DNA of 64,000 nucleotides, taken from contig JAESPQ010000123.1 of NCBI GenBank assembly GCA_016765535.1, positions 880 to 64,879 of the forward strand, in the 5' to 3' direction. Under the pieces are notes generated by a model that saw nothing but the letters and a program-made list of their open reading frames with translations, was not told the DNA's origin and made no database searches. The translations under genes and the position numbers were made by a program. Source of the stretch: Alteromonadaceae bacterium (GTDB taxonomy: Bacteria > Pseudomonadota > Gammaproteobacteria > Enterobacterales > Alteromonadaceae). Below, piece by piece: positions 10,316 to 48,230 of this stretch. Position 1 is the stretch's first letter, and each line of letters begins with the position of its first letter.

Positions 10316-11227
10316 ATGGCTAAAAGTACATCATCTCAATATAAAACACCACAAACTAAAAAAGCAAAACCACCAAAAACTCAGCAAAACAAACCGGTTA
10401 AAGTTTTTATGCAAGGTGAGCCATTATCTCCTTGGCGTGAACATATTCATGAAATTATATTTGAAGCAGATACACCCGCAGGAAAATTATTTGATATTGC
10501 TTTAATAGTTACCATTATTATTAGTGTACTAGCAGTAATGCTTAGCAGTGTTGAAAGCATCAATAAAGAATATGGACAATGGCTGACCTATTCAGAATGG
10601 GCTTTTACCGTTTTATTTTCTCTTGAATATATACTGCGTGTTATATGTGTCCGTAGACCTTGGCTATATATTAAAAGCTTTTTTGGTATTGTCGATTTAC
10701 TCTCTATTTTACCCAGTTATATCGCGCTATTTTTTGCTGGCGCGCAAACCATGATGGTTATTCGCGCTCTACGGGTATTACGTATTTTTAGAATTTTCAA
10801 ACTAGGTGAATACTTAGGCGAAGCGCATGCGTTAATACGTGCAATGCGTGCCAGTCGCACTAAAATTTTTATTTTTCTCTACACCGTATTTATCTTTGTC
10901 ATTATTTTTGGCTCTGCAATGTATTTAGTAGAAGGCAGCGAAAATGGCTTTAGCAGCATTCCAAAGTCTATCTATTGGGCAATTGTGACCTTAACCACGG
11001 TTGGTTATGGTGATTTAGCACCTCACACTAGTCTAGGACAAATGTTAGCATCAGCAGTAATGATCATGGGTTATGCCATTATTGCCGTACCAACAGGGAT
11101 TTATACTGCTGAATTAGCAAAAGAATATAAACGTGATGTAACTAATATTGCTTGTCAAAATTGCGGAGAAGAAGGACATGATAGTGATGCTAAATTTTGT
11201 AAGTATTGTGGCTGTTGTTTAGAATGA
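10316..11227 (+). CDS. voltage-gated-type potassium channel with C-terminal Cys4 zinc-ribbon tail
   Basis: S4-like segment IRALRVLRIFRIFKL (basic residue every third position), TVGYGD selectivity filter, C-terminal CQNCGEEGHDSDAKFCKYCGCC. Confidence 0.85.
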   Translation: MAKSTSSQYKTPQTKKAKPPKTQQNKPVKVFMQGEPLSPWREHIHEIIFEADTPAGKLFDIALIVTIIISVLAVMLSSVESINKEYGQWLTYSEWAFTVLFSLEYILRVICVRRPWLYIKSFFGIVDLLSILPSYIALFFAGAQTMMVIRALRVLRIFRIFKLGEYLGEAHALIRAMRASRTKIFIFLYTVFIFVIIFGSAMYLVEGSENGFSSIPKSIYWAIVTLTTVGYGDLAPHTSLGQMLASAVMIMGYAIIAVPTGIYTAELAKEYKRDVTNIACQNCGEEGHDSDAKFCKYCGCCLE

Positions 11228-12527: not shown

Positions 12528-12604
12528 TGGCGGACGCGGCAGGAGTCGAACCTGCGACCGCCTGGTTCGTAGCCAGGTACTCTATCCAGCTGAGCTACGC
12601 GTCC
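12528..12604 (-). tRNA. tRNA-Arg(ACG)
   Basis: Reverse complement GGACGCGTAGCTCAGCTGGATAGAGTACCTGGCTACGAACCAGGCGGTCGCAGGTTCGACTCCTGCCGCGTCCGCCA folds as a 77 nt cloverleaf with anticodon loop CTACGAA. Confidence 0.95.
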
Positions 12605-12674
12605 GCGGTCTAAAATTTATTTTATTAGCCTTAATAGTAGCTAACTTTCATTATTTATCCACTTGAAAGAAAAG

Positions 12675-12768
12675 TGGCGGACGCGGTAGGAGTCGAACCT
12701 GCGACCGAAAGGGATCGTCGTAGCCAACTCTTTACCAACAAAAAGCTATCCAGCTGAGCTTTGTGTCC
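12675..12768 (-). pseudogene. decayed tRNA-Arg-like copy (94 nt)
   Basis: Intact T-arm and 3' acceptor. The anticodon region is replaced or expanded, and the 5' acceptor GGACACA no longer pairs with CGCGTCC. Confidence 0.65.
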
Positions 12769-12828
12769 GTAATAACCTTTATTTTATATCTTGGTCAAGA
12801 TAACCCACTTTATTCCTAAGAATAAAAG

Positions 12829-12905
12829 TGGCGGACGCGGCAGGAGTCGAACCTGCGACCGCCTGGTTCGTAGCCAGGTACTCTATCCAGCTGAGCTACG
12901 CGTCC
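12829..12905 (-). tRNA. tRNA-Arg(ACG), second identical copy
   Basis: Sequence identical to 12528-12604. Confidence 0.95.
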
Positions 12906-12940
12906 GCAATAACCTTTTTTTATATCTCGGTTAGAGATAA

Positions 12941-12998
12941 CGAACCTTGTTCGTAGCCACCTAATCCTGAATAATCTATCCAGCTGAGCTACGCGTCC
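12941..12998 (-). pseudogene. truncated tRNA-Arg-like fragment
   Basis: Retains the 5' acceptor/D-arm (GGACGCGTAGCTCAGCTGGATAG) and TTCGTAGCC. The T-arm and 3' end are missing. Confidence 0.65.
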
Positions 12999-13041
12999 GC
13001 AATAACCTTTTTTTATATCTCAGTTAGAGATATTAACAGAA

Positions 13042-13133
13042 TGGCGGTGAGCGAGAGATTCGAACTCTCGAACGGATTTAAAGCCGTTACTCCCTTAGCA
13101 GGGGAGCGCCTTCGGCCACTCGGCCAGCTCACC
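13042..13133 (-). tRNA. tRNA-Ser(GCT)
   Basis: Reverse complement GGTGAGCTGGCCGAGTGGCCGAAGGCGCTCCCCTGCTAAGGGAG...GAGAGTTCGAATCTCTCGCTCACCGCCA. Long variable arm, anticodon loop CTGCTAA. Same csrA-tRNA-Ser-tRNA-Arg order as the E. coli csrA-serV-argV cluster. Confidence 0.95.
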
Positions 13134-39039: not shown

Positions 39040-39256
39040 AAAAATAACCCTACAAAAATTTGTCGCTAGTCTAGCAAAATTAACGACATTGTTGAATTTT
39101 ATCGCTGGCTATATTTCTTAAACAAGCAACCCAAGCAAATCATTTGCACAAATAACCAGCAAACAACGCTGTTAACTATAAAAACGGTTGCTTAACTGAC
39201 AAGTTTAATTATAATGCCAATCTCTTGAAAAGCTTATTACAAGCTCTATTCATAAT

Positions 39257-39295
39257 GCCGGTGTGGTGAAATTGGTATACACGACGGATTCAAAA
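39257..39295 (+). pseudogene. 5' half of a disrupted host tRNA-Leu(CAA) (attL side)
   Basis: GCCGGTGTGGTGAAATTGGTATACACGACGGATTCAAAA runs from the acceptor 5' strand through the anticodon loop, then diverges. Its anticodon-stem strand ACGGA pairs with TCCGT at 48037-48041. Confidence 0.85.
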
Positions 39296-39441
39296 AACAA
39301 AGCGTATTCGCTATGATTTTTGTAACTCATTGAAAGTTAAATTTCTTTCAATTAAAAATAAATAAAAATTGCTCGTAAAGTTTTGTAAAGTTTCTTGTGA
39401 AGTAATTTTACAAAACCTTATGTTTTAGGTTTAACCGTTTT

Positions 39442-39526
39442 GCCGGTGTGATGAAATTGGTATACATGGTTGATTCAAAATCAACTGCCTTCGGGCGTGG
39501 CGGTTCGAGTCCGCCCACCGGTACCA
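39442..39526 (+). tRNA. tRNA-Leu(CAA), complete, carried just inside the island's left end
   Basis: GCCGGTGTGATGAAATTGGTATACATGGTTGATTCAAAATCAACTGCCTTCGGGCGTGGCGGTTCGAGTCCGCCCACCGGTACCA, 85 nt. Relative to the split host copy it has compensatory D-stem (ATG/CAT) and anticodon-stem (GTTGA/TCAAC) changes. Confidence 0.9.
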
Positions 39527-39535
39527 CTAATAACA

Positions 39536-39566
39536 AGCCCTACTCTTAATTGAGTAGGGCTTTTTA
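39536..39566 (+). terminator. rho-independent terminator after the island tRNA-Leu
   Basis: AGCCCTACTC-TTAATT-GAGTAGGGCT, a 10 bp stem followed by TTTTT. Confidence 0.8.
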
Positions 39567-40004
39567 TTACATCAATCCTTTTTCATTTAGACTTACAAAA
39601 CCGTCCTCGCCAATAATAATATGGTCTAAAACCTTTATATCCAAAAGTTCAGCCACTTTCTGCATCCTCTTTGTAAATTGAATATCGCTTTGGCTTGGTG
39701 TTGGCACACCTGACGGGTGATTGTGCGCTAATATGACAGCAGGCGCGTTTATAATGACGGCTGTGCGTAATACTTCCGATGGCCTTAATGAAACTGAATT
39801 GACTGTGCCACTGGCGACAACTTCGTAATTCATAATGGTGTGCTGATTGGATAAGTTGATAACCACAAACTTCTCTTTTGGTTCAAACTTTAAGAAGTTA
39901 AATGCGCTATAAACTTTATGTGGTGCGTCAAGTAATTTGCCAGTGATATCACAATCAACTTGAGTAAACTTATAACGCACCTCTATTTCTCGTAAGATTG
40001 CCAT
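39567..40004 (-). CDS. RadC-like JAB/MPN domain protein
   Basis: HNHPSG JAMM-type motif in ...VILAHNHPSGVPTPSQSDIQFT. The 145 aa short form is typical of mobile-element RadC. Confidence 0.85.
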   Translation of the reverse strand: MAILREIEVRYKFTQVDCDITGKLLDAPHKVYSAFNFLKFEPKEKFVVINLSNQHTIMNYEVVASGTVNSVSLRPSEVLRTAVIINAPAVILAHNHPSGVPTPSQSDIQFTKRMQKVAELLDIKVLDHIIIGEDGFVSLNEKGLM

Positions 40005-40150
40005 TATCGCAAAGACTGCTTTTTGCCTTTACAATACGGGCATATCTGCCCACGACAATTCTGCTTGTTGCACGATACCATTTTGCATCTAACACAGATT
40101 TTAAGTAATCCCCACTTTTTACAGCAGGGACAGAAGCCCATCTGCGCCAT
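40004..40150 (-). CDS. 48 aa cysteine-rich (11 Cys) small protein, not in the ORF track
   Basis: MAQMGFCPCCKKWGLLKICVRCKMVSCNKQNCRGQICPYCKGKKQSLR. Both its start and its stop form TAATG overlaps with the flanking genes. Confidence 0.55.
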   Translation of the reverse strand: MAQMGFCPCCKKWGLLKICVRCKMVSCNKQNCRGQICPYCKGKKQSLR

Positions 40151-40587
40151 TATTTAGACTTTCTCGGTGGTGCTTTGATGGCATTTAACTGGTTACCTAA
40201 CTCACCATTTTTAACTGCTTCGATAATGGTGTTTAGTATTGGTAAAAGGTTTTCTTTTTTACCGACAGTTATCGCAGTTTTCCCCTTGGACAACTCTAAT
40301 GATTTACTTCCGTATTTTACTTCTAAGTAATAACAGTCTTTCAATTCATAAAACCAAGGTCGAATACGCTTAGGCACTTTAACTTTATTTTTCACGCCAC
40401 TCTCTGAATCTGTGACTATTTTGAACTTATAAGCGGTGAACTCAGTGTTTTCTAATAAACACTTCGCCATTTCTTGTTGTTCTGTGAGTTTTAATAATAA
40501 CTTACTTCGGCGCTTTTCGATTGATGATAGTTTTACTTTTTCTGGTTTAGTTGTAAGTGACAACTGGCTTAATAAAGATTTACTCAT
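40150..40587 (-). CDS. hypothetical lysine-rich protein
   Basis: 145 aa ORF with ATG start and a 1 nt stop/start overlap with the next gene. No motif recognised. Confidence 0.55.
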   Translation of the reverse strand: MSKSLLSQLSLTTKPEKVKLSSIEKRRSKLLLKLTEQQEMAKCLLENTEFTAYKFKIVTDSESGVKNKVKVPKRIRPWFYELKDCYYLEVKYGSKSLELSKGKTAITVGKKENLLPILNTIIEAVKNGELGNQLNAIKAPPRKSK

Positions 40588-40660
40588 TTGGCTCTACCTC
40601 TCGTTTAATGATTAAAACGATGGTAAAGCCGATGTGAAATGGTCGGCAACCTATATAGAA

Positions 40661-40972
40661 TTATTCTTTCGGTGTTTGATGCTCGCTAAGACAACGGTTT
40701 TGAATACCATAAGCCAGTGCTTGCCTAAGTGTATCAAGTTCGGTTTTTGCTTTAATGATGGTGGCACTATCACAGCCATCTAAATACATCGACTGCTTCA
40801 CCAGAGAATAATAAAGCATATTCATCACGGCAATGCCCGGCTGTTTATCGCTCGCCTTAACTACCGAATAATAGTTCGGTGCTCGACCTAAATACTCTCG
40901 GCTAAATTGATACCCTGTTTTACAGAGTCCCAAGTCTTTCAAACTCGCATATATCGCGTCTAAATCATTCAT
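40661..40972 (-). CDS. hypothetical protein
   Basis: 103 aa ORF with ATG start, heading the minus-strand operon that ends in radC. Confidence 0.5.
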   Translation of the reverse strand: MNDLDAIYASLKDLGLCKTGYQFSREYLGRAPNYYSVVKASDKQPGIAVMNMLYYSLVKQSMYLDGCDSATIIKAKTELDTLRQALAYGIQNRCLSEHQTPKE

Positions 40973-41275
40973 AGTTTCAGCCCTAAATCGTCGGTTGGTT
41001 TTTTACTGCCTAATATGGCTTGCTTGGCAGTATTTGGGGTTGGCTTACCTTATCTACTTGTATTTATCACTTGTGTTGAAAAATTAGCGAGAAAAATGAC
41101 TTTTAATAACGACTTGGAAAAATGAGTTTTGGGTGGATCGAGCGGCACAGTAATACTGGTGGAAAAAAGATTACGGAAAAAGGCTATTTTCATACAGTTT
41201 TTTACTGTTTTTTAGCGAAAAGAGATAAATAGAATGATAGGGAAATAAACATAAGCAATAAAACAAGGATTAGTT

Positions 41276-41899
41276 ATGAAGAAAATACGGAGATTAAAAG
41301 CAGCACCCAAAAGGCAATTTTTAGAAAAATTTTACCGAATGACTAAAGTTCAACAACAAGCAGTAGGTAGGCTAACCAATGGCAATTTCAAACCAGACTT
41401 GGCGGTGACGCTTACTTTTACCGAATGCCCATTTGACAGCAACGTCAACACGCACAACAAGCAACGAACTAATGACCAATATCATTTTTGTGATAAACAA
41501 TTTCGTAAATTGATGTGCCGCTTGAATAAGGCTTATATGGGTAGTCGATGGACTAAAGAAAACAAGCAAGATGTTATTCAGGTGTTTGCTGTTATAGAAA
41601 TTAGTAAAAATAACCGCTACCACTATCATCTTGCTTTTGAAGTGCCAACAACTAAAGCAAGCCTAACAAGGCAAAAACAAACCAAAGAGGAGTTTCAAGA
41701 TTGCATCATCAAACACTGGAATAGGTTTGGCTATGTGCATAAACCTAAAGACCCAAGTGATAAAAAGAAAACTCCAAAAGCAATACCTCAAATTAAGTTC
41801 AGAGATATTACCGATAACGGCTGGATTGAATACATTACTAAGGACTTACACAAAGACAGTGGCTTAGGCTACTGTGAGTATTCCAATTTTTCATATTAG
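41276..41899 (+). CDS. HUH-motif Rep-like protein (YagK/YfjJ, inovirus Gp2-like candidate)
   Basis: AVTLTFTE (motif I-like), RYHYHLAFE (HUH-like), WIEYITKD (Tyr motif). The 207 aa size and island context resemble the E. coli CP4-type yagK/yfjJ genes, from memory only. Confidence 0.45.
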   Translation: MKKIRRLKAAPKRQFLEKFYRMTKVQQQAVGRLTNGNFKPDLAVTLTFTECPFDSNVNTHNKQRTNDQYHFCDKQFRKLMCRLNKAYMGSRWTKENKQDVIQVFAVIEISKNNRYHYHLAFEVPTTKASLTRQKQTKEEFQDCIIKHWNRFGYVHKPKDPSDKKKTPKAIPQIKFRDITDNGWIEYITKDLHKDSGLGYCEYSNFSY

Positions 41900-42018
41900 T
41901 TCAAGTGGCATTCCATATTTACTATTAAGAGCAATTGACATCAATTTACACAAGGATAAGCCTACTGGACTGGGCTTTAATAGCGAAGCGTTGATAAAAT
42001 ATAATCCACTCTCAAGTG

Positions 42019-42054
42019 TTTCTCATAGTGCTTTCTATAGTGTTTCTCATCGTG
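42019..42054. repeat. three tandem 12-mers (iteron-like) downstream of the Rep-like gene
   Basis: TTTCTCATAGTG / CTTTCTATAGTG / TTTCTCATCGTG. Flanked by CACTCTCAAGT copies at 42007-42017 and 42127-42137 (120 bp apart). Confidence 0.6.
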
Positions 42055-42862
42055 GCTCACACAGTAAACTCAACAATGAATCCAATACAAAGTTATCAAC
42101 ACTTCGCCACACTAACAAATTTAATTCACTCTCAAGTATTAAAACAAAATCAAAAAAGGAAAAAACTAAACGCAAAGGCACTATTTAACGGGGCCTGCGA
42201 AGTTAAATATGGCAAAGTGTTTTTTGGTTGGCGTAGCCAGACAAATACAACCAACAGCAACAACAGCAACTCTAATAGTGCTACTAATAACAAAAGCCAA
42301 GTTAAGCCTATCCTTAACAGTATTTCCTGATACTCAACAGGATAAGCATAACTTTACTTTCCATTCGATAATCTCTCCTTTCTTAAATAAAACTAATCAC
42401 TAACGGCTAATAACGAGTATCTTGAACAAATAAGTTAGACACTTGCAGTAATAAACAAATAGTATTCAGTAAGGGGTTATGCGCTTACTGGTTTGCTCTA
42501 ATATCTCTGTGATATTGCTTGCCTCACTTATGCTCTTATTGACTAATAAGTGCGCGGAAATAACCTGTAATTTGTAAAGTGTAGAGGCGAGCAATAACAG
42601 CAAGTAAATTACAAATAAATAAATGACGTCAAATGCCGCCTTTAAGTATTATGTTGCCGCTATGGCGTTTGTTGTGTTTTAACTCGGATAAGGCGGCATA
42701 CAGCACGTTGAAAGAAGAAATAAAGCCGTTCACTTTGTGAACTTAACAAAACAAATCCAATTACAGCAAACCGTTTGCTTTATAATTTGTTTCACCACAA
42801 GGTGTTTCGTATTAAAAGAAGTTAAGGTGAAATAAACTAAGTAAAGTTGACTTGATATACCA

Positions 42863-43435
42863 CTAAAGCAAATTAGCCGCATTTAACAAAGTAGTTGGCG
42901 ATGTGGCTAAATACCTCGCCGTTGTTTGTATGTTGGCGTGGCCTGCTAATTCTTTTAGAATATGTATGCCAACGCCTTTATCAGCCAAGCCAGTTAAAAA
43001 ACTTCTTCTGCCACTATGGCTTGTGGCACTTTCAATTCCCGCATCTTCAAATATCGTCTTAATAATACTAACCATCGAATTTGGCGTAATAGCACAGCCT
43101 TTTTGACTGCGCAGTAATGGCGTGGTGCGCTTTAACTCACCTAATCCCATTTCTACATAATAAGCCTGTAATGCTGCGGCTAATTTATCATTGACGGCAA
43201 ACACACGACCCTTTTTGCCTTTTGTCTGTGCGGCACTCAAATTGACCATGGTTTTAACTTCACCGCTAACACTAAAAATATCACCAATAACAAGTGCGGC
43301 TATTTCTTTAGCCCTAAGCCCTGCTAAAAATGATAACTGTAAGGCAAGGCAGTTGCGTAAACTGTGGCGACCTGAGTTTGCTATGGCTAATGCACGCTTA
43401 AATTCATTACTTGATAACACTTTTGCTTGTTTCAT
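42863..43435 (-). CDS. catalytic-domain-only tyrosine recombinase (190 aa)
   Basis: GLRAKEI (Arg I), TKGKK (Lys), SHSGRRSF (HxxR), AGHANIQTTARYL (His/Tyr). No N-terminal core-binding domain. Confidence 0.8.
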   Translation of the reverse strand: MKQAKVLSSNEFKRALAIANSGRHSLRNCLALQLSFLAGLRAKEIAALVIGDIFSVSGEVKTMVNLSAAQTKGKKGRVFAVNDKLAAALQAYYVEMGLGELKRTTPLLRSQKGCAITPNSMVSIIKTIFEDAGIESATSHSGRRSFLTGLADKGVGIHILKELAGHANIQTTARYLATSPTTLLNAANLL

Positions 43436-43625
43436 CTATTTGCTGCCTTGTTTGCTAATAACCACTCTTTCACTGGCATTTATAGTAAATGATTGGATTA
43501 AATACGGCAGCCTTTTTGATTAGGTTTAATCGAGTAATGATTTCATCGCCTTAGCGCATAATCCAATCTTTTGTATATTTCCTGTGATTATTGAATGACT
43601 CATAAATAGGGTAAAGGGAGCGAGC

Positions 43626-43940
43626 ATGTACTTTTACGAAATACTAGAATCCAATTACCAACATAAGAAAAAGCAACTTACTGAAGCATTGAGTAGGGAA
43701 GAACTACAGAACAATGATTATTATGAACTCGGGGCTGAAAAAATAACATTACGCCATATTCATAATTTACGAAAATCTAAAGACCACGCAGACAGAGAAA
43801 AGAAAAAGCGGCTAGAGTTTTTACCTACTATGTATGGTCTAGAAGGGTCTTTGACCAATGACCAAAAAGTGGACTTAGAAAAGGCTAGAATGGATAATGA
43901 AACCAAGTTAAGTATAGAGCGCATCAAAGCATTGCAATGA
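43626..43940 (+). CDS. hypothetical charged coiled-coil protein
   Basis: 104 aa with AGGGAG RBS 7 nt upstream of the ATG. Convergent with the RT gene. Confidence 0.5.
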   Translation: MYFYEILESNYQHKKKQLTEALSREELQNNDYYELGAEKITLRHIHNLRKSKDHADREKKKRLEFLPTMYGLEGSLTNDQKVDLEKARMDNETKLSIERIKALQ

Positions 43941-43967
43941 GGAGATAAATAAAAACTTAACTACTCC

Positions 43968-44930
43968 TTAATAAGGTGTTGGGGTTTTGTGATTTCGAAT
44001 GCTTCGTGCCTTATCTTTAAATTTTGGTTCTATAGCGGAGAGTGAGTTAAGTCTGCCTAGGAGCCTATTTTTTAGGGTTTCTGGCATATAAGGGGTGTCT
44101 TTGAGGATTTTCCATTGTTCTATATCTTGATAGACATTTCTGTGCTGTTCGTTTTTAACAAATTGTTTGCCGTCTTTCAGTATGACGCCTGTAATTACCT
44201 TTGCATCATCCTTGGCGTATAGAACCGTTTTTACCGGATGTATTATATGCCCGTGACGTTCAACAATTCTCTTAATTGTTGATATAAATAATTTATTTAA
44301 TTTATCCCCTGAAAAAGTTATATCATCAACATAAACAGACATTTTTATATCATGCTTTACTGCTATTTTTTCTAATTCCAAAAACATCCCAATATTAGCC
44401 CACAAAGCCAAAGGCATACTTATTCTGCTACCTGTTGGAAGATGCTCATTATAGGTGCAAATTTTTGATAATATGTCAGATACATCTGAAGAACACTTCA
44501 TCTTTCTATTGAAAAAGTTAAATAAATGAGTCCTAGAGGTCGATGGGAAAAAAGAACGGATATCAGTTGTTAATACTTTATGGTGCCCTATATGGATGCG
44601 CGCATTCGTAATATGTGAGTGCTTCGCTCTACCAGAATGTACAAAATCTGGTATTTTTATCCGACACAAGAGACTGGCAATTCTCGTATGGACTTTATCT
44701 AACTCAAGGTTCGGGTGCTCAATTATCCGTTTTTTACCATTACTATTTACTTGCTCAAATACATTGTAATTGTCAGTATTTTTAATTAGAGCATTTAAAG
44801 TTACAGGTTCAAGTAAAAGTAAAGCCGCAAGTTTACGTTTAGTTGTTAGTTTATATAAAGGAGAGTCAGAAATTTCGTATGCTTTGTTTAATGTTTTAAT
44901 CTTAAACTTGGGTCTTTTTTGTTTCTTCAC
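43968..44930 (-). CDS. retron-type reverse transcriptase (GTG start inside the HTH gene)
   Basis: TTDIRSFFPS (motif A), LPTGSRISMPLA (motif B), YVDDITFS (motif C). Retron-associated signatures ITNARIH (NAxxH) and KVITGVIL (VTG-like). 320 aa with no extra domains. Confidence 0.85.
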   Translation of the reverse strand: MKKQKRPKFKIKTLNKAYEISDSPLYKLTTKRKLAALLLLEPVTLNALIKNTDNYNVFEQVNSNGKKRIIEHPNLELDKVHTRIASLLCRIKIPDFVHSGRAKHSHITNARIHIGHHKVLTTDIRSFFPSTSRTHLFNFFNRKMKCSSDVSDILSKICTYNEHLPTGSRISMPLALWANIGMFLELEKIAVKHDIKMSVYVDDITFSGDKLNKLFISTIKRIVERHGHIIHPVKTVLYAKDDAKVITGVILKDGKQFVKNEQHRNVYQDIEQWKILKDTPYMPETLKNRLLGRLNSLSAIEPKFKDKARSIRNHKTPTPY

Positions 44931-45213
44931 GCTCAGTTACCCATTCCATGATATTTAATATCTTTGCTGCAAAAAAACGTTTGAATTTTTCTGGTATTTT
45001 TTTCTTGTCTTCTAATGACTCTGAAAAGAAAACTAATGAAGACATAGGTATATCAAATTGCTTTGAATATTTTTCGAGCAATTCTACACTTGCTGGTTTT
45101 TTACCAGATTCAATTTCACTCAAATAAGATTTAGAGATAGCAAGACTTTCGGCTAACTCAACTTGTTTTAAATTATGAAATTGTCTAATAATCTTTAATG
45201 CTTTATTTATCAT
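44902..45213 (-). CDS. XRE-family helix-turn-helix protein
   Basis: LKQVELAESLAISKSYLSEIESGKK, a canonical HTH_XRE. AAGGA RBS. Its 3' end overlaps the RT start by 29 nt. Confidence 0.85.
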   Translation of the reverse strand: MINKALKIIRQFHNLKQVELAESLAISKSYLSEIESGKKPASVELLEKYSKQFDIPMSSLVFFSESLEDKKKIPEKFKRFFAAKILNIMEWVTEREETKKTQV

Positions 45214-45229
45214 GTGTATATTCCTTAAA

Positions 45230-45265
45230 AACTAAGGGGAACACTTGATATGAGCGCCCTTAGTT
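45230..45265 (-). promoter_or_regulatory. 9 bp-stem palindrome between the small ORF and the HTH gene (attenuator or operator candidate)
   Basis: AACTAAGGG (45230-45238) pairs with CCCTTAGTT (45257-45265) around an 18 nt loop. On the minus strand it is followed by TTTTT and the HTH RBS. Confidence 0.5.
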
Positions 45266-45413
45266 AACCGAAACAATTTAATAACCTCCAAATCCAATAC
45301 CCAACTCTCATTAAGAGTTTGATAGCAGTCCAGAGTTTTCGTCGTTTCTTCTTCTTTAGGTCTTCAGTATCAAGTGCCTGCCAATAATCATTAATTCTTT
45401 TTTGCATTTTCAT
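45264..45413 (-). CDS. small ORF (about 47-49 aa) with basic centre and hydrophobic Trp-rich C-terminal tail
   Basis: MKMQKRINDYWQALDTEDLKKKKRRKLWTAIKLLMRVGYWIWRLLNCFG. GGGAG lies 7 nt before the second ATG. The track's longer version starts at a TTG. Confidence 0.35.
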   Translation of the reverse strand: MKMQKRINDYWQALDTEDLKKKKRRKLWTAIKLLMRVGYWIWRLLNCFG

Positions 45414-45663
45414 GCTCCCATATTTACTGTTTCGCAAAATTGCTAGCAGTTTCGCCCAAATATAGGTGAGAGTTATTGGCAAATACCCCTCGTTTTACAC
45501 ACCGGGTTCGCCCGCGGTGTGTGTCCCCTACCAATCTTGCTACATAGTTAAGTTAAGTTATCTGATGAGCACATGTGGGGGAAAAAGGTTAGAGAATTCA
45601 AGATTCTCCTCGAATGCAAGCATTCAGTTCTAAATGGCGATTTTCTCTCTTTTCTTAATGACG
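45414..45663 (-). ncRNA. candidate structured leader / RT-associated ncRNA
   Basis: Downstream of a near-consensus promoter. It holds four consecutive hairpins, including the GC-rich ACACACC-GGG-TTCG-CCC-GC-GGTGTGT stem (45497-45522), and an (AGTTA)3 tract at 45546-45560. No ORF with an RBS. Confidence 0.35.
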
Positions 45664-45669
45664 CTTAAG

Positions 45670-45698
45670 ATACTAGAGGTAGTTTTCGTCGATGTCAA
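45670..45698 (-). promoter_or_regulatory. sigma70-type promoter for the small ORF-HTH-RT unit
   Basis: The minus strand reads TTGACA (45698-45693), a 17 nt spacer, then TAGTAT (45675-45670). Confidence 0.6.
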
Positions 45699-45726
45699 AT
45701 AAATTCGCAAATAGCGAACTTTTTGT

Positions 45727-46623
45727 TTAAGAAAAGCAATCAATATGTGAGATATGTATGAGGTTTTCTTTTATGCCTAAGTATATAAGCGCACTTAAGT
45801 GAGAGTGCTCATCTTCGGCATCATAGTAACTTAAATGCCATTGCACGGATTGTTTGTCGATATTGTTTACGATATTGGCAAAGTACTTAATATCTACTTC
45901 TGATATAGAGTGACCTAATACGTAAATATGCCTTATTGAATTTAACTTTTTAAAAAACAATTCGTTATCATTAATTAAGTCTTGAGCAGGTTTGAATGTT
46001 TTTTTAAAATAATCATCTACAATTCCATACCCCTCCATTACTCTAGTATCCCAGTCCTCATCAAATTGTATGTTAGCATTTTCAGTATAAGTTTTTGATG
46101 ATGACCAATCGTGCCCTAATACCAACTCACTATCCTTGTTTATTGCTTTGCCGTGTATATGTAATATTCGCTCGCATGGAACATCATAAATTTTATTTAA
46201 TGTATCGGTATAATTGAATGATAGAAAAAAAGCAGACGGTGAAATAACTTTAATTTTTTTCTGGGTTGGTATTCGTAATTCAAGTACCCAGTTAAGTAGG
46301 TGCCTTTTTAATTCTGAGGACAATGAGTCAGTGTATCGTTCAACCTCTATTTGAAAACTATGATGCCCACTATCACTCCAGTTTTCATCGCTGTATGATG
46401 CTAGATACTGCATTGCATCATCGATTAATGTATCAACATCCACACTTGATAATGCCGATTCAAGATTATTCCAGTTCTCTGAAATCATTAAATATTTTTC
46501 AATTGAGTCAGCAACATCGCAATCGATTAATTTGATGTATTCTTTAAAATCACTATAACGTGATTTTATTCCGTGATGAATATCGAAACCGTTACCTAAA
46601 ATATATAAAATATCATTCTGCAT
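45727..46623 (-). CDS. AbiH-family abortive infection protein
   Basis: MQNDILYILGNGFDIHHGIKSRYSDFKEYI, FNYTDT, HIHG and YVLGHSISEVDIKYF match the AbiH signature. I set the start at the ATG at 46621-46623, which forms a TAATG overlap with the integrase stop. The track's TTG at 46632 is less likely. Confidence 0.8.
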   Translation of the reverse strand: MQNDILYILGNGFDIHHGIKSRYSDFKEYIKLIDCDVADSIEKYLMISENWNNLESALSSVDVDTLIDDAMQYLASYSDENWSDSGHHSFQIEVERYTDSLSSELKRHLLNWVLELRIPTQKKIKVISPSAFFLSFNYTDTLNKIYDVPCERILHIHGKAINKDSELVLGHDWSSSKTYTENANIQFDEDWDTRVMEGYGIVDDYFKKTFKPAQDLINDNELFFKKLNSIRHIYVLGHSISEVDIKYFANIVNNIDKQSVQWHLSYYDAEDEHSHLSALIYLGIKENLIHISHIDCFS

Positions 46624-47912
46624 TACAGGCAACCACGTTTTTTATATTCAGCATTCCATTCATTCATCCATTTAGCCGTATCTTTGGCTAACTCTGCTTT
46701 TTCTTCTTCTGTATCTTGCACTATTAGTTTAACGGGGTCGGTATTTGTAAAATCAACACCCGATAGTTCATTAGTAAACATTTCAGGCATTACATGGCTG
46801 TAATGTTGCTCTAACATTTGAATACTCGTACCACATTGCTTAGCGATAATTTGTGCAGGTAATTGATTCATTAATTGCCATGTGATGTACGTATGCCTTA
46901 AGGAATAAAGTGTACGTTTACCACGTGGTGATTCTTTTAATTCATTCTCAATAATTAATTTATCAAATGCTCTGCTAAGTTCTTTTGTCTTACTGCCATC
47001 TTCTAATTTAAATAAAAGGTCTTTTGGTTTTCTGTTTGGAAAACGCTCTCTTAATCGTTCAAATGCCCACAATACTTCTTCACGGCATACTACTGTTCTA
47101 GCACCCGTGTGCTTTGTGGTTTTGCCTTTGCGAACTGTAATTAAAAATACAATTTTATCGTATTTCTGCCTTAGTTCTATATCACCCCAAGTTAAGTTTT
47201 CCATTTCAGTACCAGGTCTAATACCTGAGTAAACAGCAATATCCATATAGTCTTGTAATAGTTCACGTAACATATGAGTATTTTGTTTTCTGCTATTACC
47301 TATGAAACTAGGTAAGGCTGATATTAATTTTTGATATTCTTCTTTATTAAATGCAGCCTTGCGTTGACCATCAGACCCTGCAGAAGCAGTTAGTCTGGGT
47401 ATTTGAATTGGTAAAATCCACTTGTTTAATAGTGCTTCTTCAAAGACGCGCATCATTGCGGCGTTATGGTTGAGTAGGGTTGATTTGGCAGGTGTACGTT
47501 TTAATTGTTCAATACGCCAAACATCAAATTCTAATAATCGTTGATTATCAATGCTGGTGATATAATTGTTATCAAAGTACGGAATATGATACTTATTTAA
47601 TACGCCGATATAGTCATTGTATGACTGTTTTCCTGTGCCTTGTGCAAGTTGCTGTTGCATACGTTTAATTGCTAAATCAGCAACGCTTTTAAAGCGCTTG
47701 GTATTAATAGGAACGTTATTTTCTAATTTGAGTTTGTATTCGATAAAGTGCTGATGGGCGGCAGGTATTGCTTGTTCTAGGTCTTTCTTTTTTGTAGTCT
47801 TAGTATACCAATTACCATACAACACAAAGCGAGCATACCAGCGTAGGCTGTTTGCTTGTTTATATATGTATAACTCGTCAGTTATATCGTGTCGTGCTAC
47901 TTGTTTACTCAT
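46623..47912 (-). CDS. int: tyrosine-type site-specific integrase (P4-like size, 429 aa)
   Basis: C-terminal catalytic motifs LYSLRHTYITWQL (HxxR) and MLEQHYSHV (Tyr). Adjacent to the attR tRNA fragment. Confidence 0.9.
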   Translation of the reverse strand: MSKQVARHDITDELYIYKQANSLRWYARFVLYGNWYTKTTKKKDLEQAIPAAHQHFIEYKLKLENNVPINTKRFKSVADLAIKRMQQQLAQGTGKQSYNDYIGVLNKYHIPYFDNNYITSIDNQRLLEFDVWRIEQLKRTPAKSTLLNHNAAMMRVFEEALLNKWILPIQIPRLTASAGSDGQRKAAFNKEEYQKLISALPSFIGNSRKQNTHMLRELLQDYMDIAVYSGIRPGTEMENLTWGDIELRQKYDKIVFLITVRKGKTTKHTGARTVVCREEVLWAFERLRERFPNRKPKDLLFKLEDGSKTKELSRAFDKLIIENELKESPRGKRTLYSLRHTYITWQLMNQLPAQIIAKQCGTSIQMLEQHYSHVMPEMFTNELSGVDFTNTDPVKLIVQDTEEEKAELAKDTAKWMNEWNAEYKKRGCL

Positions 47913-48028
47913 ACGTAATTAAAGCACGATTATGGGATTACCGGCAAAGTGTTTACGTAAAGTTTTTGTAAAGTATGTATTAGGGTTTTTATCTGGTTGA
48001 ATTTACGGGGTTATTTTAAGCGCGTTAT

Positions 48029-48082
48029 ATTCAAAATCCGTTGCAGCAATGCGTGGCGGTTCGAGTCCGCCCACCGGTACCA
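48029..48082 (+). pseudogene. 3' half of the disrupted host tRNA-Leu(CAA) (attR side)
   Basis: ATTCAAAATCCGTTGCAGCAATGCGTGGCGGTTCGAGTCCGCCCACCGGTACCA. Joined to 39257-39295 it reconstitutes an 85 nt tRNA-Leu(CAA) with all stems paired. Confidence 0.85.
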
Positions 48083-48230
48083 TTATTTTTAACGATTAGT
48101 CCCTAAAATGACATGGTTTGTTATCTTAGTTTTTTTATTTACTTCCCTTTGTAAATAACCAGCTACCTCCTCCGACCTCTTTGTGTTAAATTAATATTCA
48201 ATCACTCTATTTAAAAATAAAATTAGCACT

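Follow-up and report, generated by a model that had tools for sequence, protein, structure and literature searches.

A tRNA-Leu(CAA) gene split at its anticodon loop by an apparent 8.74-kb integrative defence island that carries a complete replacement tRNA-Leu(CAA)

In the current study, we analyzed a 64,000-nucleotide stretch of contig JAESPQ010000123.1 from an Alteromonadaceae bacterium (here called the window), in which two halves of a host tRNA-Leu(CAA) gene are separated by 8,741 bp of other DNA (window positions 39296-48036, ca. 8.74 kb), a span that has the features of an integrative island. The displaced 5′ half (39 nt; 39257..39295, plus strand) forms the host side of the left attachment junction (attL) and ends with the last base of the anticodon loop, while the displaced 3′ half (46 nt; 48037..48082, plus strand) forms the host side of the right junction (attR) and yields a valid tRNA when placed behind the 5′ half. 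As a sequence-only reading of this locus had claimed, the two pieces join into 85 nt that ARAGORN calls as tRNA-Leu(CAA), with D stem GTG/CAC and anticodon stem ACGGA/TCCGT; taken separately, neither ARAGORN nor Rfam calls a tRNA at 39257 or 48037. The same reading held that the junctions share only anticodon-loop sequence. What they share is indeed exactly ATTCAAAA (8 nt; 39288..39295 at the left and 48029..48036 at the right, both plus strand) and nothing beyond, i.e., the 7-nt anticodon loop TTCAAAA plus one base, although comparison with related elements reduces the conserved, family-wide core to the 7-nt loop and leaves the eighth base here as a coincidence.

The single intact tRNA-Leu(CAA) that ARAGORN finds in the region (39442..39526, plus strand) lies within the island, 146 bp inside its left end, and scores 53.5 bits against the Rfam tRNA model (threshold, 29). 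It is identical to the split gene at 71/85 positions (14/85 differ), the changes in the D and anticodon stems are compensated, the variable arm differs, and the gene is followed by a terminator-like hairpin and T-run (39535..39562, plus strand) with an 11-pair stem containing 6 G-C pairs. ARAGORN, Rfam, and this hairpin together bear out the earlier description of a complete tRNA at this distance with compensated stems, a different variable arm, and its own terminator. Equally sound was the claim that the gene is not regenerated at the left junction, where the 5′ half directly abuts a non-tRNA spacer. The reason given for rejecting the standard model of tRNA-targeting islands (an intact gene made of a host 5′ part and an element 3′ part) was that GTTGA in the intact copy mispairs with TCCGT in the right-hand half. 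The model does fail, in that the 5′ half meets non-tRNA sequence, but the pairing argument is weaker than it seemed, because ARAGORN still accepts a hybrid of the intact copy's 5′ half and the right-hand 3′ half as tRNA-Leu, with one mismatch and two G-U pairs. Upstream of the left half, a probable −10 box (TATAAT; 39210..39215, plus strand), read from the sequence, marks what is probably the host tRNA-Leu promoter, retained at the left junction. Its TTGCTT-16 nt-TATAAT layout is conserved upstream of the tRNA in two related loci (L224 and L222); it is absent from the listing of our consensus scan, and its −35 element matches at just 3/6 positions.

At the opposite end of the island, a 429-amino-acid tyrosine integrase (46623..47912, minus strand; Pfam PF00589) is encoded in the direction away from the right junction, from which its gene is separated by 116 bp. 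The 146-bp spacer at the left (39296..39441, plus strand) would be the element-side arm of attL (P′ arm) and contains tandem arm-type repeats at 39375-39391, ca. 50 nt before the complete tRNA, with an inverted copy at about 39404-39414. The corresponding arm of attR (P arm; 47913..48028, plus strand) has its own tandem repeats of arm type, which occupy 47957-47974 and separate the start of the integrase gene from the junction. The tandem repeat GTAAAG-N4/5-GTAAAG occurs in the window only in these two copies, in the same orientation, where 0 would be expected; likewise, the pattern GTAAAGTTTT(N)GTAAAGT has two matches in the 64 kb (0 expected). The repeat finder TRF reported a period-10 array in the left spacer, an inverted repeat (I4) was also reported there, and both sets of arm repeats are intact. 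The repeats on the two arms match the pattern expected of the arm-type sites of an element attachment site (attP), at which the integrase would presumably bind. Because the left spacer shares its arm repeat with the integrase-proximal end, we assign this spacer and the adjoining tRNA to the element and not to the chromosome. An imperfect inverted repeat (CGCGTTAT ... ACAAAGCG) borders the core in the reconstructed attP, whose homology to the tRNA is limited to the loop sequence.

Relatives of the window's host retain the uninterrupted gene. In a metagenome contig and a contig of a metagenome-assembled genome (MAG) (loci L226 and L227, respectively), whose RDD protein is 77% identical in amino acid sequence to that of the window, a tRNA-Leu(CAA) identical to the joined halves (85/85) has the orthologous RDD gene as its neighbor; the tRNA of Colwelliaceae bacterium 6471 (L010) is 84/85 identical. 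The left half matches the 5′ part of the intact tRNA in L226/L227 at 40/40 positions, and window positions 48029-48088 match the intact tRNA and its flank there at 60/60, a match that runs six bases beyond the CCA end; relative to L226, both halves and both cores are free of mutations. Since an identical, uninterrupted tRNA occurs beside the orthologous RDD gene in a relative, these alignments indicate that the split tRNA-Leu(CAA) at this locus is a real gene and not a product of chance.

Might the spacer and the second tRNA nevertheless be chromosomal, as one member of a tandem pair of host tRNA-Leu(CAA) genes around which a tRNA-less element was inserted or other DNA was rearranged? Tandem tRNA-Leu(CAA) genes do occur in some Photobacterium genomes (L023, L087, and L108). 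However, the four relatives compared beside the RDD gene (L226, L227, L224, and L010) each have a single intact tRNA-Leu(CAA), with no spacer resembling 39296-39441 and no second tRNA; it was in these that we looked for the ancestral spacer-plus-tRNA arrangement that the sequence-only reading had itself put forward as its chief danger, and it was absent. Nor did we find a sister genome with two tandem copies divided by a spacer of this kind. The spacer holds the same arm-type repeat as the integrase-proximal end, and the 3′ half of the first copy, which on this account should lie in the spacer, is actually 8.7 kb away, beyond the integrase. We therefore regard a host tandem pair as extremely unlikely.

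The left-end arrangement is not peculiar to the window. A scan of a genome collection with the 5′ half gave at least 119 loci, the frequencies among which are not representative; in most of these, the tRNA is intact and commonly adjoins an RDD gene. Among the matches listed, six have a 5′ half ending in GGATTCAAAA, an unrelated spacer of ca. 100 to 140 bp, and then a complete tRNA-Leu(CAA): those of Catenovulum maritimum, an Algicola MAG, Vibrio europaeus, Shewanella olleyana, a Motiliproteus MAG, and Photobacterium profundum. Their spacers end in element-specific tandem repeats (TGCAAAG, TGTAAAG, GTGTAGAG, TTTATACA, and similar). A seventh case, with the same 5′ half ending and with tandem repeats of its own in a spacer of ca. 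185 bp, is metagenome contig L222, from a relative of the window's host. Left ends were thus seen for eight elements, the window's included; the spacers, repeats, and replacement tRNAs differ among the seven other genomes, and in all eight cases the replacement tRNA immediately adjoins the P′ arm, with the retained host promoter upstream of it. The proposal that the same element be sought in other genomes was therefore well rewarded, the more so as S. olleyana contains a second complete element on one contig, running from a 5′ half that ends at 83632 to a 3′ half that begins at 101113 (ca. 17.5 kb, with different cargo). The S. olleyana halves join into a valid tRNA-Leu(CAA), and an integrase 56% identical to that of the window is encoded beside the 3′ half. 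Cargo elsewhere is diverse (restriction-modification genes, an OLD-like ATPase, and an inovirus-like module), and the conserved unit, as far as these sequences indicate, is the integrase, the attP, and the tRNA.

Three loci deserve separate mention. In P. profundum (L104), the genes beside the replacement tRNA are inovirus-like (a Zot-like ATPase and a small open reading frame [ORF] resembling single-stranded DNA-binding proteins). In Vibrio sp. nBUS_14 (L099), the tRNA is split at the loop, with no tRNA within the next 6.8 kb. In a Colwellia MAG (L110), the break falls after the anticodon stem, so that a different site was used.

The integrase itself belongs to a large family, with 507 full-length homologues (E ≤ 1e-10) in Shewanella, Colwellia, Thalassotalea, Alteromonas, and other marine Gammaproteobacteria. 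Across 14 aligned homologues, the catalytic-region motifs are invariant, and the window's ORF is full length and aligns end to end. The right junction also has a recurrent order, present at 3 loci from genomes and at no fewer than 30 of the 80 from metagenomes: beyond the integrase start come the repeats TTTGCAAAG-N2/3-TTTGCAAAG, homologous to those of the window's P arm, then ca. 55 bp, a conserved ...CTCTT-like motif, and TTCAAAA with the tRNA-Leu(CAA) 3′ half. In none of this family does the attP-side sequence just before the core show homology to a tRNA. In the 80 metagenome loci, a search reaching 10 kb from the integrase met with no left end. A full tRNA-Leu(CAA) was present in L164 alone, which belongs to a divergent branch with a different, T-arm-type junction and looks canonical. 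Compared with 50,697 phage records, the integrase had a best match that was only 25% identical over 65% of its length; phage and plasmid records held nothing close except a truncated copy on an Alteromonas mediterranea plasmid, and viral contigs held one distant relative alone (40% identity).

Some branches of the family appear to use other tRNA genes. In branches with ca. 50% integrase identity (L133, L146, L150-L153, L169-L193, and others), the right junction, just upstream of each integrase gene, has either TTGAAAA followed by a tRNA-Phe(GAA) 3′ half or, in L133, TTTAAAA followed by a tRNA-Leu(TAA) 3′ half. The switches of target thus go along with changes of one base in the 7-nt overlap. 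In the loci fetched for the tRNA-Phe branch, no 5′ half of a split tRNA-Phe was present. The displaced tRNA-Phe 3′ halves in L146, L150, and L151 contain an extra ca. 14 nt within the T arm (GTCCCTGCCGGTAACCGTGAGTCACGATCCCGGG) relative to other loci.

These comparisons also bear on the possibility that the window holds a canonical island, with the 3′ part of the tRNA in attP and a regenerated hybrid gene at the left, that later decayed, the intact tRNA being of unrelated origin. Most tRNA-targeting islands do regenerate their target, as described for tycheposons (10.1101/2020.12.28.424599) and in the Islander work (PMC4383910), and the rearrangement of the window's right flank relative to relatives also speaks for decay. 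Against this, the last base of the loop is precisely where the 5′ half breaks off, and the same loop opens the right junction; seven other genomes have the identical breakpoint, a non-tRNA spacer, and a complete tRNA, with unrelated spacer sequences; and the attP side just before the core is without tRNA homology across the family. Decay of a canonical island is thus very unlikely, because independent decay would not repeat an exact breakpoint together with a complete tRNA in eight genomes.

We conclude, with a probability of roughly 85%, that 39296-48036 is an integrative island of ca. 8.74 kb inserted in the anticodon loop of the host's tRNA-Leu(CAA) and provided with its own complete cognate tRNA, so that the interpretation offered by the sequence-only reading is supported. 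We see at the locus and in its relatives a split gene, an intact equivalent, a short core, arm repeats, an intact integrase, a complete cognate tRNA, and recurrence of the module. In the mechanism that we envisage, the tyrosine integrase would have recombined attP with a chromosomal attachment site (attB) formed by the 7 nt of the anticodon loop in the host gene for tRNA-Leu(CAA). Because attP shares only the loop sequence with the tRNA, this event would strand the two halves of the gene, both dead, the 5′ one at the left junction and the 3′ one at the right. The island would offset the loss by supplying a complete tRNA-Leu(CAA) with its own terminator, and, once integrated, this tRNA would also sit downstream of the retained host promoter. 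That the integrase catalyzed the insertion and binds the arm repeats is inferred from its position and sequence. If still able to excise, the island would presumably form a circle with the junction ...GCGCGTTAT-ATTCAAAA-AACAAAGCG....

No terminator lies between the retained host promoter and the island tRNA, which is downstream of that promoter in the integrated state. Expression of the island tRNA by read-through from the host promoter is therefore plausible, and we presume that the tRNA is expressed, charged, and needed for fitness.

Several observations weigh against this interpretation. The right flank is not syntenic with that of the nearest relatives, as homology to the window starts only at ca. 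48160, and a later rearrangement may have taken place next to the 3′ half. Contigs with an identical RDD protein or hydrolase are all either occupied or broken at 39296 or 48167 (breaks that are suggestive at most), so that no empty site from the same population was recovered, and the excised-circle junction was unmatched in the viral-contig scan. The consensus scan found no strong promoter directly upstream of the island tRNA, and no excisionase was recognized in the island with Pfam, PHROGs, or NCBIfam. Finally, the need for an island copy hinges on whether other tRNA-Leu(CAA) genes exist outside the window, within which ARAGORN finds none besides the island copy; in E. coli, the tRNA-Leu(CAA) isoacceptor (leuX) is dispensable.

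With regard to the right flank, the expected empty site had been set out as an RDD gene, an intact tRNA, and an alpha/beta hydrolase gene. The first two were found together, but the hydrolase lies elsewhere, beside genes for a DUF3545 protein and a transaldolase: the nearest relatives by the hydrolase (76 to 85% amino acid identity; L216-L221) show the order transaldolase-DUF3545-hydrolase and no tRNA. Two contigs from other samples with an identical hydrolase (L121 and L122) start at 48167. The chromosome by the 3′ end of the tRNA (48083-48166) appears from these comparisons to be rearranged or hypervariable.

A milder departure from our interpretation would accept the insertion but regard the island as an immobile fossil, whose tRNA is now the host's tRNA-Leu(CAA) and whose flanking halves are mere relics. 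Only the occupied site has been recovered, in several samples, and no excisionase was recognized by the searches above. Moreover, a fixed state of this kind is seen in L222, where (in the reverse complement, at ca. 10870-11190) behind the 5′ half come, in this order, a spacer, a replacement tRNA that differs from the window's, a restriction-modification pair of HpaII type, and housekeeping genes from parE to tolC, with neither an integrase nor a 3′ half within 9.3 kb. In the window, by contrast, the integrase is full length and its catalytic-region residues are invariant among the aligned homologues, the halves and cores are mutation free relative to L226, and both sets of arm repeats are intact. 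Immobility of the island thus seems to us unlikely, though far from negligible.

L222/L223 looks like a decayed island, reduced to a fixed remnant whose tRNA became the host's copy. This raises the possibility, which we hold only tentatively and at somewhat less than even odds, that such islands serially replace the chromosomal tRNA-Leu(CAA), the tRNA of a decayed island staying as the host's only copy and becoming the target of the next. The first 39 nt of the window's island tRNA are identical (39/39) to the chromosomal 5′ half in L222/L223, whose RDD protein is 83% identical to the window's. In L224, the closest relative by RDD (88%), the tRNA is only 72/85 identical to the window's split gene, whereas in the remoter relatives (RDD, 77% and 61%), it is 85/85 and 84/85 identical. 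Similarly, a 65-nt alignment with 95% identity links the island tRNA of S. olleyana to S. piezotolerans, where the matching sequence is the displaced 3′ half of the host gene together with the flank next to it. Because of the L222/L223 match, the divergence of L224, and the match between the two Shewanella species, we suggest that island-borne and chromosomal tRNA-Leu(CAA) genes exchange. Two serial right junctions (arm repeats, core, and an identical tRNA-Leu 3′ half) are present in L135 and also in L152/L197, on contig Ga0210042_1000002, ca. 25 kb apart. Serial right junctions are the pattern expected if a second island enters the replacement tRNA of the first (nested or tandem accretion).

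As for the remaining contents of the island, the terminator of the replacement tRNA is followed by genes on the minus strand for a RadC-like JAB protein (39567-40004), a DUF6641 protein (40150-40587), and a DUF6626 protein (40661-40972), as recognized by Pfam and NCBIfam. On the plus strand lies a gene (41276..41899) for a Rep-like protein with a weak match (Pfam E=1.2e-6) to the ORF2/G2P family, the initiators of filamentous-phage type. Behind this gene, positions 41997-42142 are rich in repeats: tandem units of 12 nt occupy 42010-42054, and a 24-nt repeat recurs at a distance of 120 bp (41997 and 42117). The stretch is a candidate origin that could serve the island once excised. The island also encodes another tyrosine recombinase, which is 190 amino acids long and consists of the catalytic domain only (42863..43435, minus strand; Pfam PF00589, E=1e-24; PHROG integrase); it has a weak relative in the Vibrio sp. 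nBUS_14 locus mentioned above, where the tRNA is split too.

The rest of the cargo points to phage defense. A reverse transcriptase of type VI retrons (43968-44930, minus strand; PADLOC RT_VI, E=3.6e-100) adjoins its helix-turn-helix (HTH) partner (44902-45213, minus strand; PADLOC HTH_VI, E=6.4e-38), i.e., the combination of a clade VI reverse transcriptase and an adjacent HTH gene by which type VI is recognized. The ca. 500-bp ORF-poor stretch beside them (45214-45726) is a candidate site for the msr/msd RNA; it has no Rfam match, and the Rfam scan found nothing other than the tRNA. Next comes a gene for an AbiH abortive-infection protein (45727..46632, minus strand; Pfam AbiH, E=2e-67; PADLOC AbiH). 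The AbiH gene overlaps the integrase stop codon, which suggests that the two are cotranscribed. Pfam, NCBIfam, and PHROGs revealed no virion, packaging, or lysis genes in the island, and the PHROGs matches are confined to the integrase, a regulator, RadC, the reverse transcriptase, and unknowns. Given a cargo of a type VI retron and AbiH, we consider the element to be a small phage-defense island rather than a prophage. Elsewhere in the window, a minus-strand tRNA cluster at 12528-13133 (two Arg[ACG] and one Ser[GCT]) is unrelated to the island.

Integrases that target tRNA genes have been classified by Williams (2002), reportedly with an anticodon-loop class that includes that of phage HP1. 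The island resembles this canonical class in that crossover would take place in the 7-nt loop, the two sides of the anticodon stem forming the symmetric flanks of attB. As with Islander-type islands, a displaced 3′ fragment (here 48037-48082) marks the far end of the element. However, the canonical attP of the Islander work (PMC4383910) carries the 3′ portion of the tRNA and regenerates the gene at attL, whereas here a displaced 5′ half is left as well, and 146 bp from it stands the intact tRNA, a complete gene in its own right with a 5′ half of its own. Tycheposons (Hackl et al., 10.1101/2020.12.28.424599) have attachment motifs of ca. 40 nt with partial tRNAs and restore the gene. Like them, the island occurs in marine bacteria, has a tyrosine recombinase specific for a single tRNA, combines cargo of a defense or niche kind with a replication module, and is of a type that accumulates serially at one tRNA; in contrast, it carries a complete replacement tRNA, which that report does not describe for tycheposons.

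The closest precedent is tRNA-dependent lysogeny, described by Guerrero-Bustamante and Hatfull (mBio 2024, PMC10865867) for actinobacteriophages including Fionnbharth, LeBron, and Gaia, with experimental proof in mycobacteriophages. By their definition, a tyrosine integrase uses a core of 8 to 17 bp that does not reconstitute the tRNA, and the lysogen survives only with the cognate tRNA that the phage encodes; phage Gaia, like the island, targets tRNA-Leu-CAA, through an 8-bp core and with its tRNA next to int. The authors foresaw that the phenomenon would occur elsewhere, and works that cite the term appear to include one on Sinorhizobium prophages. The island agrees with this system in having attB in a host tRNA gene, a tyrosine integrase (the catalytic role of which is presumed from its motifs) beside attP, arm-type sites bordering the attP core, a short core (8 nt, ATTCAAAA) from which no tRNA is rebuilt, and a complete cognate tRNA (39442-39526, 53.5 bits). 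It differs in its carrier, which is not a temperate phage (structural, packaging, and lysis genes are absent) but a small defense island in a marine gammaproteobacterium; in its integrase, which is unrelated (25% identity to the best phage match); and in that dependence on the tRNA, demonstrated for the phages, is here only a prediction. Literature searches returned no description of this island family in Shewanella, Alteromonas, or Vibrio. What is new, then, is the type of carrier, the clade, and the integrase family, the mechanism being already known as tRNA-dependent lysogeny.

A phage phenomenon only two years old is thereby extended to nonphage defense islands and to the Gammaproteobacteria, and it seems that the targeting of tRNA genes without reconstitution, combined with a cognate tRNA on the element, is a general design and not an oddity of actinophages. 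There is a practical consequence for island mapping: a search that looks for an intact tRNA plus a displaced 3′ fragment would overlook the dead 5′ half of such an element and set its left boundary ca. 185 bp too far inward. For the element, a short-core attP removes the need to match the host tRNA sequence, which may explain the range of the integrase family from Vibrio to Shewanella to Motiliproteus, as well as retargeting to tRNA-Phe(GAA) and tRNA-Leu(TAA), whose loops differ by one base. For the host, if the serial replacement considered above does occur, the tRNA sequence at a conserved locus would mirror island traffic and not host descent, and these islands would provide a concrete route for the horizontal replacement of a tRNA gene.

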